Part shown: positions 2,872-24,422 of the stretch, in pieces | Layout: each line of letters starts with the position of its first letter | How positions within the stretch are numbered: position 1 is the first letter of the stretch | Assembly: GCA_041572575.1 (NCBI GenBank) | Contig: JBFFSH010000035.1 | Coordinates: 1 to 25,507, forward strand | Direction of reading: 5' to 3' | Length of the DNA stretch: 25,507 nt | Source of the DNA: Thermodesulfobacteriota bacterium | Lineage (GTDB): Bacteria > Desulfobacterota_D > UBA1144 > Nemesobacterales > N074bin48 | The notes under the pieces: model-generated | What the model was told of the DNA's origin: nothing | Seen by the model: the letters and a program-made list of their open reading frames with translations, nothing else | Databases searched by the model: none | Program-made: the position numbers and the translations under genes

Positions 2872-3891
2872 CTACTGATTTGTACTAAAAACATGTCCTG
2901 AAGGGGTTTGTGTTAGGTATTCATGCCAGTTTTTCTCAAGCAAATTAAGCCCGCCGGAATAGCTTTGATTTACTACGAACATCGATGGGGTTTCGTCGGA
3001 AACACTAAAGTTTTTGAGGATTTTCTTTATAGATTCGGTGCCTTCGACACTGGACATTAGATAATGGACCAGAGAATAAGCAATTGAGCGGCTTGTTCTG
3101 TCTTCTACAAGGTTTCTGTTTTTCCAAACATTATTTGAAAGACCAAAGTACTCGAGCAGTGATATCAGCTCTTTTTTACTAAGCAGCGAAGCAATTTCAC
3201 TGTGTCTGTCATACTGGGGTCTGAAAAGTACCTGATTATCTGATATTTCTATTGTTTCAAAATACTCGGCAATACCTTCATTTACCCAAACAGGTATTCT
3301 GTAACCGGCCTGCTGAATCATTGCATGGCATGCCTCGTGTATTGATATTCCTACCACTTCGTTTCGGTATTTGCTTGCATTAACAAGCGCCTCACCCGTT
3401 CGGGAGCTGAAAATTCCTGATTCTGAATAAATCTTTCCAATTAGCCTTTTTTGGTATGCAAGAAAATCTCCGTGCCTGCCGAATATCTTGATATTGATAT
3501 CTGTACCCGGGGTTATTCCATATACTTCTTTAAAATAATCGTACACGAAATGGACTCCCTTGTGTATGGCAGTTATTTGTTGAGCAGGTAAAGATAATCT
3601 TACCTGTACTATATTTATGTCCAGCTCGCCTGCGCCAAAGTTCTGAGAGGTTTGTTCAGTCTCAGTTAAATCTTCAATTTCCGGGTCAGTTGTTTCATCG
3701 TTTATTGTAAAGCTCTCTCTTGGCTTATAATTTTGTTCCTCTGTATTTTGAGGGCAGGGGGAATTGCTGTATAGAACATTTCCGTTACTATCCACACATT
3801 TGTATACCTGTGCATGGAGTAAGTTAGTTAGTGCGGTGAAGTATAGAATTAAAGCAAACGAAATAATTGTAATGCTGTTCTTAGTAAACAC
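2872..3891 (-). CDS. Secreted DUF4124 + DUF1570 (zincin-like metallopeptidase) protein
   Basis: Signal peptide, then AQVYKCVDSNGNVLYSNSPCP (DUF4124-like), HEACH zinc motif and PVWVNEGIAEYFE. GTG start. Confidence 0.8.
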   Translation of the reverse strand: MFTKNSITIISFALILYFTALTNLLHAQVYKCVDSNGNVLYSNSPCPQNTEEQNYKPRESFTINDETTDPEIEDLTETEQTSQNFGAGELDINIVQVRLSLPAQQITAIHKGVHFVYDYFKEVYGITPGTDINIKIFGRHGDFLAYQKRLIGKIYSESGIFSSRTGEALVNASKYRNEVVGISIHEACHAMIQQAGYRIPVWVNEGIAEYFETIEISDNQVLFRPQYDRHSEIASLLSKKELISLLEYFGLSNNVWKNRNLVEDRTSRSIAYSLVHYLMSSVEGTESIKKILKNFSVSDETPSMFVVNQSYSGGLNLLEKNWHEYLTQTPSGHVFSTNQ

Positions 3892-6887: not shown

Positions 6888-7652
6888 TTACCAGACTTCG
6901 AGTTTAACCACAGTCTCTCTAAACTCTTCCGGTACTTTTTTGGGGTTGTTGGTGTAGTGTTCTGTACCGTCATTATCTATCCATTTGTACACATATTCCG
7001 GCTCGCCGCTGTCATCTTCGTATTCTTCTTCCGGGTAGTAATCTTCGGTATCTTCTTTGAGATTTGAATAACGCTCCTCCGAGTACTGCTCAGCAGGTTT
7101 TTCTTCTAAATACTCATACTGGGAGTCATCTCGTCCGGGTTCAATTTCTTCAGAGTAAATTTGATTGTCATAGTATCTGTCCTGCGAATATTTCCTGTCA
7201 TAGTACCCTCTGTCATAGGAGTAATAGTATGTAGGGTATGAATAGTATGGCTTATAACCGTAGCCATAGTATCCGTAAGGTTTGTAGTACGGCCTGTTGT
7301 AACCGTAATAGCCAAAGCTCAGGTTATTGCCGCCATAGTAGATACCGTAACTGCTTCCTTTATGCTTATTATGATGTTTGTAGTGATGCTTCTTGGCATA
7401 ATGTCCGCTTTTATGACCTTTATAATATTTATGATGACCTGAATATTTGCCATTATTATAATGAGATTTTTGCTGTCTGTTGTAGTGCTTTCCACCCGAA
7501 TGCTTGCCGGATTTAAACTGCTGGGCGGACTGTTTTCGGTGTCCTGATTTGGAATAAGCGGATTTATTGCTGCCGGATCTGGCATTAACAGAGTTGTAAC
7601 CGGATAGAACAAAAAGCAGGGTTAGGATTAGTACGCTTAAAATAATCCTCAT
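6888..7652 (-). CDS. Secreted low-complexity His/Tyr/Glu-rich protein with C-terminal DUF4124-like domain
   Basis: Signal peptide, then K/H-rich, Y/G-rich and E/D-rich blocks. C-terminal VYKWIDNDGTEHYTNNPKKVPEEFR. Confidence 0.8.
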   Translation of the reverse strand: MRIILSVLILTLLFVLSGYNSVNARSGSNKSAYSKSGHRKQSAQQFKSGKHSGGKHYNRQQKSHYNNGKYSGHHKYYKGHKSGHYAKKHHYKHHNKHKGSSYGIYYGGNNLSFGYYGYNRPYYKPYGYYGYGYKPYYSYPTYYYSYDRGYYDRKYSQDRYYDNQIYSEEIEPGRDDSQYEYLEEKPAEQYSEERYSNLKEDTEDYYPEEEYEDDSGEPEYVYKWIDNDGTEHYTNNPKKVPEEFRETVVKLEVW

Positions 7653-9672: not shown

Positions 9673-10341
9673 TTAGACCGCCTTCTTTTTATATTCGAAA
9701 TACTGGTGTTTGAGTATATCTACAGAGCTTTGCTCAAGACCTAGCCTTTCTATATCTTTATCGAAATTTATGGCCGTTCCGTATCCGTTAATATAACCGT
9801 TTACCCTGGCTGAAGCTGTAGAATCTACAAACTGCTGCATGTTTGTAAAGATTTTTTTAAAGTCGGCAAGCAGAGCAGTGTGGTTTTGCAGATGGTATTT
9901 TTGATGATAATTCTCAGCTTGGTAGAATCTTTCATAAGGGATGATCTCGGTTGTGATTTGCTCCTTAAGCTCTTTTTCTAACTTCTGTTTAGAATTTAAT
10001 ATAATCTTTTTTTGCTTTTCATTATGAAAGAATATGGCCTTTGCATACTGGCGTTTCCAAAATGGAGAAATAGGGTTGTGGTTTTTCCAGAATACTGAAA
10101 CAATCTCTTCAAAACTCAATTTATCTAAATCAAAATCAATTTCTAAGGATTCTATATGATCGCCAATATTATGGTAAGTCGGGTCTGGCATTGTACCGCC
10201 TGCGTATCCAACTCTTGTTCTTATCACCCCGTCCATTGCCCCAAACTGCCCGTCAGGGCCCCAGAAGCAGCCTAAACAGAATGTAGCTGTTTCTACTCTT
10301 TCATGTTTTTCTAAATCTATTGGTGGTAGTGAGCTAGTCAA
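9673..10341 (-). CDS. msrA: Peptide-methionine (S)-S-oxide reductase
   Basis: GCFWG active site, TRVGYAGG and FYQAENYHQKY. TTG start with a GGAAGGA RBS. Confidence 0.92.
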   Translation of the reverse strand: MTSSLPPIDLEKHERVETATFCLGCFWGPDGQFGAMDGVIRTRVGYAGGTMPDPTYHNIGDHIESLEIDFDLDKLSFEEIVSVFWKNHNPISPFWKRQYAKAIFFHNEKQKKIILNSKQKLEKELKEQITTEIIPYERFYQAENYHQKYHLQNHTALLADFKKIFTNMQQFVDSTASARVNGYINGYGTAINFDKDIERLGLEQSSVDILKHQYFEYKKKAV

Positions 10342-12919: not shown

Positions 12920-13498
12920 ATGCGAATAGTTAATATGCTTATTATCATGTTGCTCCTTTCACAGTTTGCAATGGCAGAAATCTATAAATGCATAGATGCT
13001 TCCGGTAAAACGTCTTACAGCAATCTTCCATGCCCTGAGGGCGCTAGTAAAAAACAGATCGAACCATCAGGCAACGATACCAATGTGTCTTATGAAAGCT
13101 ATGATGAAGATATAGAATATCAGCAGGAGATTGAAGAAGTAGTAACTGCACCCGCACAAAATTCACAAAGCATACTGCATATAAGCGATGGAGAGAGGGT
13201 ACAGCTACAAAATTATATTGAGTATGGGAAATACACGGCTTTTATGTTCTATGCCCCATGGTGCCCGTCATGCAGAAAGGCAAGGCCTCAGGTTCAGGCG
13301 TCGGCAAATACACATGCTAACCTGGTTTTAAGAGAGATAAATATTGTAGACTGGAAAAGCCCTGTTAAGGATCAGTATAATATAAAGGCAATACCTTATT
13401 TTAAGCTGTATGATTCCAGGGGAGTCCTTGTCTCTGAAGGAACAAGCTCTTCTTCTGATACTTATAAATATTTACTAAACCCTGACCTTCTTAAATAA
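12920..13498 (+). CDS. Secreted DUF4124 + thioredoxin-domain protein
   Basis: Signal peptide, AEIYKCIDASGKTSYSNLPCP, FYAPWCPSC and cis-Pro IPYF. Confidence 0.85.
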   Translation: MRIVNMLIIMLLLSQFAMAEIYKCIDASGKTSYSNLPCPEGASKKQIEPSGNDTNVSYESYDEDIEYQQEIEEVVTAPAQNSQSILHISDGERVQLQNYIEYGKYTAFMFYAPWCPSCRKARPQVQASANTHANLVLREINIVDWKSPVKDQYNIKAIPYFKLYDSRGVLVSEGTSSSSDTYKYLLNPDLLK

Positions 13499-20386: not shown

Positions 20387-21001
20387 ATGGACAGACAAAA
20401 CATATTAAAAGGATTTCTTATCATATTTTCTTTCGTATCTTTTTTTATGCTCTTTTATATCTCGGCATTTGCAAAAGATGATACGATTGAAGGCAGCATT
20501 GTCTGTGTTAATAATGACAGATTTGGCAAAGTAAACACAATTACCAAATATTCAAGCTGCAGCGGGGTTCTTGTGGTGCTTGGAAATAACAGCAGGATTT
20601 ACGCGCTTTCGGGTTCTGATGAACAGGTAAGAGAAATAGAACAGAGTCCACAAAAAATCAAAAAGCTTAAGGGGCAAATAAACGGCAATGAACGGGCCTG
20701 GATTTTTAATATCTCTACTCTTACTCCTATTAATGAGCAGACTGCAAAGCAAGAAATAAAGGGTGATTTGTACTGTCTTGTGCCGGATAATGACAATGAA
20801 AATATTAAAGCCATAATATCAAATGAGTCCTGTGATACCAAAAAGCCCCACGCCCATGTGGTATCAACTAAAGACGGAGAGGTTTACACTATTCATGGAG
20901 ACCAAAGTGCAATATCGGCGTTAGAAAAGAAATCATCCCGAACTGAGTTGGTTCTTGAAGGAAACTTAAAAAAAAACGGCTCTGAACTGATTATAGATTA
21001 G
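20387..21001 (+). CDS. Secreted hypothetical protein with two internal repeats
   Basis: Signal peptide followed by two similar ~85-aa units, each with a Cys pair. Confidence 0.75.
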   Translation: MDRQNILKGFLIIFSFVSFFMLFYISAFAKDDTIEGSIVCVNNDRFGKVNTITKYSSCSGVLVVLGNNSRIYALSGSDEQVREIEQSPQKIKKLKGQINGNERAWIFNISTLTPINEQTAKQEIKGDLYCLVPDNDNENIKAIISNESCDTKKPHAHVVSTKDGEVYTIHGDQSAISALEKKSSRTELVLEGNLKKNGSELIID

Positions 21002-21087
21002 TGAATTAGATCAGGCTATTGTTATTGGGATATTTTTTTAATTCGGATGTATTAATATTGATATCCACAATTATGGATAAATAACAA

Positions 21088-22464
21088 CTAGTTATAGATA
21101 TATCTAAGAGCGAGCAGCACTGCATGCATCTGATGTTGTACTACATCTATCCTCACATTATCAAAATCCTTTGCATTTAATATACCTCCAATTCCGGATT
21201 TTTTGTGAGGCTTGGTTCTTATAAGAAATTTATTTTCATGTTCCAGCGGGCCGCCAACCTGCCAGGTTGTAAGTTTATACAAGACCTTGTCTATTATATA
21301 GAGTATTTCCGAAGCTGCCGCGTTATTACCGTTATTTTTTGCGACTAGATATCCAAAAATTAATCCTTCAAATGCATAAGAGGTATTTCGTTTTTTCTCA
21401 TCTATTTTGTTTATATGTATAGACCACCATGAAAGGCTTAGAATATAGTCTCTGAATAAATCAGAATTTTCCCACCCGGCATCCTGGTATTCCCAATATG
21501 CCATCAGGCTCCACTGAAAAAATCCCTTTGTTAATCTAGATTGCGGATCTATATGCCATTGGTCTGTAGTGTAAGTTTTGGCCATTGCCAAAACACTTTC
21601 TTTAATTAGCGGTTTATATTGAGTGTAACCCAGATATTTTGCCGCTTTAATCAAACAAAGTATTGTTTCGCCATCAAAGTAAGGACTGGAATTGTCCCAT
21701 TTTTCATTTTTCACAGGATCATATCTTTGTGAAAAATGTTTTGTATCTTTTAAATACATGAAATTCAAAAATTCTAAATAACCATTCAGTTTATCTGTTA
21801 ATTCATTTTGATATTGTTGGGATATTGTTATCTCTTCATTCTTTATTGTCCTTAAATAATCTATTATTGAGAGAGAAACCAGTGCAACAGTACCTGTTTT
21901 TACGTACCGCATTCCGGGATAATCAATTATATAACTGCCTTCAACAGGTCCTTTACTGGTATGTTTAAAGAAAAATTTGAGTCCTCTGTCAATTGCTGTT
22001 TTGACTTCAGGTGTTTGCTCATACTGATATATTGTCGTAATACCCCAGAGCGCTCCAGCCTGCCTAACCTCATTCTCGTCCGCTTCATCCATTTCTTCGG
22101 GTTGATTCACCATATAGTAATTAAGATATACAAAATTTCCCTCAGGTGTTTGATTATTAACTAGATATTGTTTGCCGAGCTGAAGCGAGGTTTCAAGTAT
22201 ATTTGCATTTAATAATTTTTTGCTGTTTCGTTTAGACCATTTACGAGTTTTTCTAAATTCTTTCATCCATTGAGGAAATTCGTCTTTGGAGAGATTATCA
22301 GGGAAATTGTAAATGTTTTTTGGTTTATCATCTGTAGATTTAGTCACCGATACCGCTTTTTTATTAACTTCTTTGTTTTCCTTTTGTGATTGATTACTAC
22401 AGGCGCATATACAGAAAATGACTGTAATCATCAACAGGCTTCTAATTTTCGTATACAGGTTCAT
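21088..22464 (-). CDS. Putative lipoprotein with an (alpha/alpha)-barrel (six-hairpin glycosidase/terpenoid cyclase-like) domain
   Basis: Lipobox-like ICAC-S. Helical-hairpin motifs QTPEGNFVY, NEVRQAGALW, KTGTVAL, YFDGETIL, AFEGL and VRIDVVQH. AGGAG RBS. Confidence 0.7.
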   Translation of the reverse strand: MNLYTKIRSLLMITVIFCICACSNQSQKENKEVNKKAVSVTKSTDDKPKNIYNFPDNLSKDEFPQWMKEFRKTRKWSKRNSKKLLNANILETSLQLGKQYLVNNQTPEGNFVYLNYYMVNQPEEMDEADENEVRQAGALWGITTIYQYEQTPEVKTAIDRGLKFFFKHTSKGPVEGSYIIDYPGMRYVKTGTVALVSLSIIDYLRTIKNEEITISQQYQNELTDKLNGYLEFLNFMYLKDTKHFSQRYDPVKNEKWDNSSPYFDGETILCLIKAAKYLGYTQYKPLIKESVLAMAKTYTTDQWHIDPQSRLTKGFFQWSLMAYWEYQDAGWENSDLFRDYILSLSWWSIHINKIDEKKRNTSYAFEGLIFGYLVAKNNGNNAAASEILYIIDKVLYKLTTWQVGGPLEHENKFLIRTKPHKKSGIGGILNAKDFDNVRIDVVQHQMHAVLLALRYIYN

Positions 22465-22486
22465 ATTAAATATTCTCCTTATTAAT

Positions 22487-23704
22487 TTAAATAGATTTTA
22501 TTTTTATTCTCCAGTTATCCAGAGCCGAAGGAATATAGAAAAAGAAAAATGTAGCTGGAAACAGAGTGAATATATATAATACAGCACTAAGACCGTTTCT
22601 TTTTTCGTTGTCTGAAGTTTGCAAAGATATACTCTTTATATTTGATGGTGATATATCTTTTTTGTTTATTACTGGCGATTTATAAGGTCTGTTGTCAACC
22701 CAGTTATATCTTCTAAGCCAGTCCAACATTTTACCGATTCTTACAAAGATCCTATGCCGTTTATTACTTGAATCATAATATACTGTGTTCTGGTGAGATT
22801 TTGGATTGATAAAAGCAATATACAACACTATCATCTGCAATGAAAATGTTTCAATGCTAACCGTAAAACCAATTCCTAGATGTAGAATCATTCCTATAAA
22901 AATGGCAAATCGTCTGAATCTCAGTATCCATAGACCAAAAGACAGGAAACCTTCCGCAAATACAGTAAATGTACCCAAGAATTTCCAGAAACTATGGCTG
23001 AATTCGATAAGATTGTATTTGTGAAATATGAAGTCAAGAAAATCAGAAAAATATCCGCTTACACTGCCCTGCTGATAAAACAGCAGGGTTATATCCCCTG
23101 TAATCCAATGAGGGTGTAGTTTTTGTATGAAGCTGAAAAAATATATAATGCTTAAAAAAACCTGTACCAGACGCAGCGGCAGGACGCAACGTTCTTTAGG
23201 TTCAACAAAATTTGTTTTTTCTCTCTTTCTCTTTATAAATCTATCCAGGCTGTAATGATCGTAACATCTGCTAAAACCCAGTATGAGCAGTACAATTACA
23301 AGATTCATAACATGATGCCGGTAGGTAAATTGACTGAGGAGGAAAAAATATAGATATATTGTTGCAGTTATCGTACCGTTTATTCTTGTATACAAACCGA
23401 TCACAAAAAAGATAGTCGTTATAAGAAGTACATCTTCTATTCTGTTGTAAGTTTCAAACGATGGGGCAGGCAGCCACTCAAGTCCGCGGATAGGCATTCT
23501 GAAGGCATCCTGGTCAAGGTAGTAGTGTTGTATGCTCTTGAAATAATGGAGGGGAAAATCTAGATAAAGCTTCTCTATATACTGCATGTTGCTGATCCCT
23601 AGAAGCTTCATCAAAAAAATTGTTACGAAGAAAACTCTCAGCAGGCACAGACTCTGAGATGAATCTGAATCAAACCAAAATTTATTCCAATGTTTTAAAA
23701 TCAT
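22487..23704 (-). CDS. HTTM-domain (vitamin K-dependent gamma-carboxylase-like) membrane protein with a degenerate C-terminal DCC1/DUF393-like domain
   Basis: Motifs WNKFWF..SLCLLRV, IGLYTR, YRHH, YSLD, IYFFSFIQKLHPHWITG and LHLGI..SIETFS. C-terminal VYYDSSN...LDW...GLSAVLYIFTLFP. Confidence 0.85.
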   Translation of the reverse strand: MILKHWNKFWFDSDSSQSLCLLRVFFVTIFLMKLLGISNMQYIEKLYLDFPLHYFKSIQHYYLDQDAFRMPIRGLEWLPAPSFETYNRIEDVLLITTIFFVIGLYTRINGTITATIYLYFFLLSQFTYRHHVMNLVIVLLILGFSRCYDHYSLDRFIKRKREKTNFVEPKERCVLPLRLVQVFLSIIYFFSFIQKLHPHWITGDITLLFYQQGSVSGYFSDFLDFIFHKYNLIEFSHSFWKFLGTFTVFAEGFLSFGLWILRFRRFAIFIGMILHLGIGFTVSIETFSLQMIVLYIAFINPKSHQNTVYYDSSNKRHRIFVRIGKMLDWLRRYNWVDNRPYKSPVINKKDISPSNIKSISLQTSDNEKRNGLSAVLYIFTLFPATFFFFYIPSALDNWRIKIKSI

Positions 23705-23725
23705 TTTGTAAAAAATTAACTGTTC

Positions 23726-24163
23726 TTAGGGATATTGAATTACAAGAATCTTTTTATTGTGTTTATCAAACGGCTCCTTGCGATTTATGTTAAATTCATA
23801 GTATATTATCGCTTTAATAGCCTTAGCATCGTTTTTTCTTTTATTTTTATATAGAAATTCGAGATAGTCATGCACCCAAGCCTTGACGGCTCCTATTGAA
23901 TATCTTGTATTATTATAATAAAGCTTTTTAAAAGCCTCTCCCCTCAATTCACCCCCGAAAAAGTGTTTAATGGTTTGATCATTATCTATTATCCAGTAGT
24001 ATTCAACGTTAAAATTAACCTGTTTTGAAAATGTGCCCCAGCCATACCTGTTGTCGTCTTTTATCATAGACCGTATTCCAAGTGCGAGTGAACCAGCGAT
24101 TAGTAATACTGCAGGGATGTTCCACCACCATTTCGGGGTTAATATTTTATTTCCTGTGCTCAT
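23726..24163 (-). CDS. Single-TM membrane-anchored protein resembling the GGCX/VKGC lumenal domain
   Basis: One TM helix, then RYGWGTFS and a C-terminal YEFNINRKEPFD. Start at ATG 24163 (TTG 24181 possible). Confidence 0.7.
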   Translation of the reverse strand: MSTGNKILTPKWWWNIPAVLLIAGSLALGIRSMIKDDNRYGWGTFSKQVNFNVEYYWIIDNDQTIKHFFGGELRGEAFKKLYYNNTRYSIGAVKAWVHDYLEFLYKNKRKNDAKAIKAIIYYEFNINRKEPFDKHNKKILVIQYP

Positions 24164-24282
24164 TAATGTAATATTAAACAAATTTTAGAGGTAAAATAAA
24201 GTATTAATAATAAATATCTGCAAATTAGTTGTGTAGTTACTTACAAATGTTAATGAAATTTTAATATTTCTGTAAAAAACGG

Positions 24283-24311
24283 TTGACACTAATTTTGATT
24301 TGCATTAGTAT
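24283..24311 (+). promoter_or_regulatory. Sigma70 promoter
   Basis: TTGACA (24283-24288), a 17-nt spacer and TAGTAT (24306-24311). The predicted start site (~24317) coincides with the riboswitch 5' end. Confidence 0.8.
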
Positions 24312-24315
24312 GTAT

Positions 24316-24422
24316 GTAGACAAAGGCACACTGCGTGAAAACGCAGGTCGCAAAGCTCATTACCTAAGGGCTTAGTAGTATGATGGATACTGAAGCCTAT
24401 GGTCGAATGGCTGCCGATTTAT
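24316..24422 (+). ncRNA. Cyclic di-GMP-I (GEMM) riboswitch
   Basis: AAAGGCACAC, P2 CTGCGT-GAAA-ACGCAG, GTCGCAAAGC junction, P3 with an 11-nt receptor CCTAAG/TATGG, and a terminal GCTGCCGA. Located in the 5' UTR of a surface-protein gene. Confidence 0.93.

Follow-up and report, generated by a model that had tools for sequence, protein, structure and literature searches.

A small single-transmembrane protein and an HTTM protein as predicted partners in a split GGCX-like enzyme of a Thermodesulfobacteriota bacterium

Genes and features of the locus

The window, meaning the whole stretch of 25,507 nucleotides that was analysed, carried three co-oriented genes on the minus strand. The gaps were 21 nt between P0002 and P0001 and 22 nt between P0001 and P0003. 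The first-pass annotation had described two adjacent co-oriented genes 21 nt apart, and these open reading frames were present as stated. The third co-oriented gene, encoding P0003, was absent from that annotation.

23726..24163, minus strand: small single-TM protein P0002, 145 aa (ORF call and confident fold model)
22487..23704, minus strand: HTTM membrane protein P0001, 405 aa, the GGCX transmembrane half (PF05090 and GGCX profile match)
21088..22464, minus strand: predicted lipoprotein P0003, 458 aa, of an uncharacterised family (ORF with 697 homologues)

An alternative start of P0002 at TTG 24181 would give 151 aa, compared to 145 aa from the ATG. A Shine-Dalgarno-like stretch was located within the 22-nt gap ahead of P0003. 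A candidate source DNA run differed from the window by 4 substitutions over 20413-24333 and aligned there without gaps. This gapless run, together with the separate ORFs in homologues, disfavoured an assembly artefact. DNA runs containing the locus were labelled sediment, estuary, soil and marine, and 14 were a possible source. Two RNA-library runs gave contigs over the whole 7.5 kb at a flat depth, which cannot tell RNA from DNA, and a third run covered 16 of 30 bins.

Other features of the window were also recorded. A c-di-GMP-I riboswitch was found at 24315-24418 on the plus strand (65.7 bits). It preceded a divergent gene that ran off the window and encodes an acidic, Gly-rich secreted protein, the N-terminus of which weakly matched the CSLREA type. 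The true start of that ORF is probably later, since the listed ATG at 24399 falls inside the aptamer. At 9673-10341 on the minus strand, an MsrA with a match to a selenoprotein-type helical domain was found, and the profile alignment began near the ORF start; read-through at a selenocysteine codon further upstream is possible. DUF4124 occurred in three genes within 11 kb (2872-3891, 6888-7652 and 12920-13498), one of which was fused to a thioredoxin domain.

Correspondence of P0001 and P0002 to GGCX

P0001 matched the Pfam family HTTM (PF05090) over residues 55-301 with an E value of 3.1e-11. The VKGC lumenal domain (PF22777) gave no Pfam match on P0001 or P0002, nor in genome G000, whose contig 35 is the window. 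It was consistent with the proposal that the HTTM gene lacks the C-terminal lumenal domain of GGCX. P0001 alone gave no PDB match by sequence, and a profile of 26 P0001 relatives matched human GGCX with an E value of 3.4e-16. H131, K195 and H275 were found at the positions given by the first-pass annotation, and its by-eye alignment to GGCX was reproduced by the family HMM, with H131 on H160, K195 on K218 and H275 on H287. The same profile alignment placed W200 on W223, E251 on D263, F287 on F299 and S288 on S300. In the case of a family-member model, 274 residues were superposed on GGCX 41-332 with Z 22.7 and an rmsd of 3.2.

23120..23122, minus strand: codon of Lys195, equivalent to GGCX K218, the quinol-deprotonating base (profile alignment; K in 37/37 rows)
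23312..23314, minus strand: codon of His131, equivalent to GGCX H160 (profile alignment; H in 36/37 rows, the other row being truncated)

K195, W200 and H275 were invariant in the 37 family rows, which include near-duplicates, and H131, E251, F287 and S288 were each kept in 36 of them. According to PMC12647623 and 10.1101/2025.02.09.637231, W223 and the backbone of M401 keep GGCX K218 in position, and K218 deprotonates the quinol. O2 then yields a strong base, the Glu carboxylate is held by N159, H160 and Y395, and CO2 stacks on F299, as the same two sources describe. Catalytic residues had been described as retained in the first annotation. This held for the quinol-activating side; the equivalents of K218, W223, H160, H287, F299 and S300 were kept. 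However, it did not hold for two of the three ligands of the Glu carboxylate, N159 and Y395, or for the coupling residue K217. The N159 position was His (H130) in 36/37 rows, and the K217 position was Gln (Q194 in P0001), Ser, Trp, Gly or His, with Lys in 0/37 rows. The N290 position was Ile in 37/37 rows. At the D263 position, the acid was kept as Glu (E251), though not as Asp; human GGCX D263E is reported to have 25% activity left (PMC13486548). The pocket for glutamate is remodelled, with Asn in place of Y395, His for N159, Gln for K217, Glu for D263 and Ile for N290, and a propeptide domain is absent. This remodelling had escaped the first-pass annotation.

The C-terminal part of P0001, which the first-pass annotation did not mention, resembled a DCC1-like domain.

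22520..22792, minus strand: degenerate DCC1-like (thioredoxin-fold) C-terminal part of P0001, residues ~305-395 (alignment to PF04134-matching relatives)

The DCC1 CxxC was found in 6/37 family rows and was absent from P0001. In a model of a natural fusion described below, the DCC1-like part gave thioredoxin-like fold matches. In a tree of 31 HTTM domains, the 17 family rows grouped together with strong support, and the placement of the family relative to the fused carboxylases was unsettled.

The small protein had been proposed to have one TM, and P0002 showed one hydrophobic segment (residues 16-34) within a model helix at 12-35. It had 21 close matches, and a profile gave 131 cluster representatives at 50% identity, one of which was a spurious repeat protein. 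The Pfam search of 122 aligned small-family members gave no family common to any two. DUF5819, SdpA and the VKGC lumenal domain matched 0/122 members at E up to 0.1. Hence, of the four profiles that had been suggested as a check, HTTM was found on P0001 but none of the others on the small protein. The small-family profile matched only sarcolipin among PDB sequences, with an E value of 0.83.

The fold model of P0002 had a pLDDT of 94. With this model, Foldseek gave GGCX chains as the top listed rows by probability (0.84 and 0.77) and by TM-score (0.47 and 0.51), with E values of 0.12 and 0.18, which were not significant. When 993 chains were realigned to the model, the top 12 rows were all GGCX with Z values of 4.5-5.5, which is moderate (below 8). 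The best row placed residues 7-145 of the model on GGCX 354-489 (Z 5.5, rmsd 3.4, 117 residues). A wide fold search with P0002 gave no GGCX chain among the best 50 matches listed, where the best Z was 4.7. By sequence, the comparison of P0002 to GGCX was not significant (hhalign probability 1.2%, E 0.044), and HMM scores were within background. The first reading had seen echoes of the GGCX motifs YGYSWDMM and VSINDR in the small protein. The structural register was as proposed, with model G43 on GGCX 400, so that W42 corresponds to W399 and T44 to M401, but the likeness was not significant from the sequence alone.

24029..24055, minus strand: predicted active-site loop D37-F45 of P0002, on GGCX L394-M402 (structural register and family conservation)

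Within the small family, D37 was conserved in 118/122 members, R39 in 116/122 and W42 in 96/122. Position 44, corresponding to GGCX M401, was Met in 94/122 members and Thr in P0002. Position 38, corresponding to GGCX Y395, was N38 in P0002 and varied among Ser, Ala, Asn and Asp in the family. P0002 supplied nothing matching GGCX beyond ~490. On the basis of the fold model, P0002 is predicted to be the equivalent of TM9, the TMD-PBD linker and the first lumenal subdomain of GGCX (~354-489). The moderate match carries weight because the whole chain was covered and because it fell on exactly the part that P0001 lacks.

Gene order, natural fusion and related systems

The HTTM gene directly followed the small gene in 17/17 metagenome loci found by the small-protein motif, among which L027/L028 and L040-L042 were near-duplicates. 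In genomes of the phylum, the small family was present in 3/120, and the HTTM gene was next to it at 4/4 places. Fused VKGC forms were present in 6/120 phylum genomes and in none of the contigs of G000. Two natural fusions were also found. P0094 and the protein of L036 were 88% identical and had the order HTTM-DCC1-small, which is the order of GGCX. The fusions were located in a tandem of small gene, fusion and HTTM gene, and the linker had diverged in frame. The fusion may be derivable from one lost stop codon. In the P0094 model, the helix and motif of the small domain had pLDDT below 50 and the domain was not positioned as in GGCX; the rigid GGCX match stopped near GGCX 336, with ~600 columns at an rmsd of ~14. 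The alignment behind this model was faulty, with 20 small-protein rows on the HTTM region and 2 on the small domain, and the model was uninformative on binding. The proposal that two halves of a GGCX-like enzyme are encoded by separate genes was consistent with the profile match, the structural match, the adjacency and the fusion. However, the small protein covered only ~354-489 of GGCX, leaving the rest of the lumenal part without a counterpart.

The reversed gene order of the first-pass annotation was correct in that the small gene came first, but it was not exceptional. Of 10 other stand-alone HTTM loci from the same taxonomic order, 9 had a gene of 100-210 aa directly upstream, and several of those upstream genes carried a similar aromatic-x-Met-Phe motif. 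A Sulfitobacter plasmid had the order hypothetical gene, HTTM gene and DCC1-like gene. The split layout with the small gene first is already in print for DUF5819 and HTTM-DCC1 (10.64898/2026.08.19.745780). As an additional observation, a small+HTTM subfamily (L009, L010, L011 and L015) kept the Lys and lacked the H287 and F299 equivalents. Its neighbours were glycosyltransferase and polysaccharide genes, which hints that it may modify surface glycans.

The N-terminus of P0003, as read from its sequence, was lipoprotein-like. P0003 gave no Pfam match, and its profile gave no PDB sequence match. Its distant relatives showed weak matches to GH127, GH88, C5-epimerase and LanC models, and from these matches alone P0003 is likely an alpha/alpha barrel. 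The wider P0003 family flanked the pair in 3/17 metagenome loci (L032 and L038 by the P0003 profile, L034 by a distant-member profile), where 5/17 loci ended inside or just past the HTTM gene. Strong P0003-type genes were found in 5/120 phylum genomes. The three genomes that carry the small family were all among these five, and two of the three were congeneric. These results were suggestive of a link to the pair that is recurrent and not obligatory. G000 contained a paralogous run of small, HTTM and P0003-like genes that spans contigs 87 and 110 (L064, L065), the two contigs sharing an exact overlap of 141 bases. Beside it were a distant P0003-family member divergent from the run, a fused HTTM-like gene (~510 aa) and another small+HTTM pair. 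The cluster thus comprised three HTTM systems and two P0003-family genes, and the HTTM protein of this second pair was without the double-His motif. Secreted Asp/Cys-rich proteins beside this cluster could be substrates. A slot between pheS and dcd held a PurD-like ATP-grasp gene, a small gene, an HTTM gene and an aconitase-like gene in L037:4670-9697, and two P0003-family genes and an APH-family kinase in G016 / L060:7821-11477. It was empty in G000. A P0003 homologue with 41% identity, P0296, was named from the diatom Nitzschia inconspicua. A link of P0003 to poly-gamma-glutamate was rejected, as CapC was found in 0/120 genomes while 2 controls matched.

The architecture had been compared to SdpA/SdpB, and a small membrane protein gene adjacent to an HTTM gene was indeed found. 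A small membrane protein and an HTTM-like protein are likewise combined in one operon in Bacillus SdpA/SdpB and in linaridin LinG/LinL, where LinG is the HTTM relative. In contrast to SdpAB, the SdpB profile TIGR04033 scored 17 bits here against a cut-off of 178.4. Unlike both systems, the operon in the window had no precursor peptide gene, and its third gene encoded a large predicted lipoprotein. The SdpA/SdpB of a paper on LnsAB were set aside as unrelated Staphylococcus names.

The closest comparison was the pair in Melghirimyces thermohalophilus, where an August 2026 preprint (10.64898/2026.08.19.745780) describes adjacent single-TM DUF5819 and HTTM-DCC1-like proteins. Their predicted complex is reported to resemble whole GGCX and to bind menaquinol. 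Both pairs consist of an adjacent single-TM small gene and an HTTM gene with a DCC1-like tail, which is degenerate here. Both are GGCX-like together, have only part of the clamp, and carry the conserved Lys, Trp and Phe. Unlike the pair as that preprint describes it, the partner here matched neither DUF5819 nor another Pfam family (0/122), and a lipoprotein link and a natural fusion were found. The partner was set apart from DUF5819 by the Pfam non-match and not by a profile or fold comparison to a DUF5819 sequence. Such a sequence was found in 0/120 genomes of the same phylum and 0/401 of another phylum, and no control matched either. 

Compared to GGCX itself, the transmembrane fold and the residue equivalents named above were shared, and TM9, linker and first lumenal subdomain were moderately matched by the small protein. 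The differences were the two chains, nothing past ~490, the DCC1-like tail, a loop before the motif that was 8 residues shorter, and changes at Y395, N159, K217, N290 and D263. MloH, a bacterial GGCX relative of malonomycin biosynthesis, carboxylates an aspartyl residue (10.64898/2026.08.19.745780). It is likewise a bacterial GGCX-like enzyme with a non-Gla substrate, but MloH is described as fused and in an NRPS-PKS pathway, and none such was found around this locus or its homologues. The giant-virus gamma-carboxylase-like epoxidases of PMC13486548 also keep K218 and have Glu at D263 and Ile at N290. Theirs is a truncated HTTM enzyme, described as having no 374-418 region and as paired with a desaturase and VKOR. 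Here, unlike in the viruses, this region would be supplied by another gene, and neither a desaturase nor a VKOR was adjacent.

Proposed reaction, alternatives and meaning

The quinol side was intact and the M401-equivalent loop lay on the small protein, for which a heterodimer is the natural reading. We consider it likely that the two genes form a split GGCX-like complex. Given such a complex, carboxylation is slightly favoured as its reaction. It was put first because the equivalents of H160 and F299 were kept, as was the 374-418 region, and because MloH carboxylates other substrates. The full reading, to which we assign a probability of roughly 45%, is that the split heterodimer is a menaquinol/O2/CO2 carboxylase of an acidic, non-Gla substrate outside the inner membrane. 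A Gla-type or propeptide-bearing target protein is unlikely, since the substrate side was rebuilt and the propeptide-binding part was missing. From the GGCX topology, the active site is inferred to face outward.

By analogy to GGCX chemistry, Lys195, aided by Glu251 and Trp200, would deprotonate menaquinol, and O2 would then add, yielding the epoxide together with a strong base. With the substrate carboxylate bound by His130/His131, this base would abstract a neighbouring proton, and CO2 stacked on Phe287 would be added to the substrate. From the moderate structural match, the small protein may provide the final helix and close the site with its W42-G43-T44-F45 loop, and the conserved Asp37-x-Arg39 may replace Tyr395. 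P0003 might, speculatively, make, present or further process the substrate. G000 contained two futalosine-pathway genes side by side (MqnA/MqnD-family), a VKOR-family gene and two heme-copper oxidase genes. Epoxide recycling is unexplained, since bacterial VKOR homologues are described in PMC4555120 as mostly without epoxide-reductase activity.

The carboxylase reading was supported by the small protein supplying the equivalent of GGCX 374-418, a region reported to be essential for carboxylation (PMC13486548). Counted against it were that Y395, whose Ala mutant is reported to impair carboxylation (PMC12647623), has no counterpart, that N159, K217, N290 and D263 are changed, and that the small-protein match is moderate. 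In addition, the fusion is maybe one lost stop codon, and no conserved substrate gene was found beside the pair in the homologous loci examined.

These points were weighed against other readings of the same genes. The heterodimer would be an uncoupled menaquinol epoxidase or oxidase if quinol and O2 were consumed with no carboxylation, acting as a redox sink or as the driver of another enzyme. K217 was missing in 37/37 rows, as in the Leptospira homologues, which 10.1101/2025.02.09.637231 describes as lacking K217 and substrate activation. A Leptospira orthologue with epoxidase activity and no carboxylase activity, as cited in the first-pass annotation, was not found in the literature examined. 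Glu at D263 and Ile at N290 are common to the putative epoxidases of giant viruses (PMC13486548), Y395 was lost, and a thioredoxin-like DCC1 domain was fused in relatives, but with its CxxC lost in 31/37 rows. The viral enzymes are, however, described in PMC13486548 as having neither the 374-418 region nor a small ORF to supply it. In this locus the small protein would keep the region in trans, with D37, R39, W42 and F45 conserved, and the substrate-side residues H130/H131 and F287 were near-invariant, so that we regard an uncoupled enzyme as unlikely. The base derived from the quinol could also form a carbanion that is reprotonated or that eliminates a group, making the heterodimer an epimerase or dehydratase. 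SdpA and SdpB are reported to be needed for toxin maturation (PMC13343845), and the formation of dehydrobutyrine has been connected with LinG/LinE/LinL (10.1101/2020.07.09.196543). The remodelled Glu pocket and the weak matches of P0003 relatives to C5-epimerase, GH88 and LanC barrels pointed in the same direction. The SdpB match of 17 bits was weak and far under its cut-off, and operon gaps of 21, 22 and 86 nt were too short for a precursor peptide gene. No such gene was conserved in homologous loci, where ORFs of at least 100 aa were listed, and the F299/S300 equivalents of the CO2 site were kept. An epimerase or dehydratase therefore seems improbable to us.

It would be different if the small protein were an unrelated accessory subunit, its likeness to GGCX 354-489 being chance, and the HTTM protein acted alone or with another partner. 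Z values of 4.5-5.5 are in a common range for the tool, unrelated T-fold proteins reached Z 4.2-4.7, and the sequence matches to GGCX were not significant. However, the GGCX match extended over the full length of the protein, TM helix included (117-126 of 145 residues), compared to only 43-145 in the unrelated rows. It fell exactly on the part that the HTTM protein lacks, and the motifs were colinear. Together with the adjacency in 17/17 loci and the fusion in GGCX order, this made a chance likeness very unlikely. 

A broader picture around the split heterodimer, which we hold to be doubtful, is a three-part periplasmic machine. It would combine a split menaquinol-powered carbanion enzyme, the Asp-x-Arg loop and alpha/alpha-barrel lipoproteins, and it would act on a cell-surface substrate. 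This substrate would be an acidic protein, a lipid head or a glycopolymer.

The split concept is already in a preprint, which limits the surprise. New here are the partner family outside Pfam, the Asp-x-Arg loop, the natural fusion and the recurring lipoprotein. A literature search, with subscription journals and the preprint supplement outside its scope, gave no paper on any of these four. The split form was extended to a partner family unseen by Pfam (131 clusters at 50% identity). Among bacterial GGCX relatives, MloH alone has a known substrate in the literature examined. The two-gene core has a clean GGCX residue map, and the natural fusion could serve for expression. The remodelled pocket lets the residues that tie quinol epoxidation to carboxylation be probed, and the uncharacterised lipoprotein family is a lead to the substrate. 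If the three-part machine were true, it would mean vitamin K-type modification of the envelope outside antibiotic and RiPP pathways, and a single sediment bacterium would have several versions of it in parallel.
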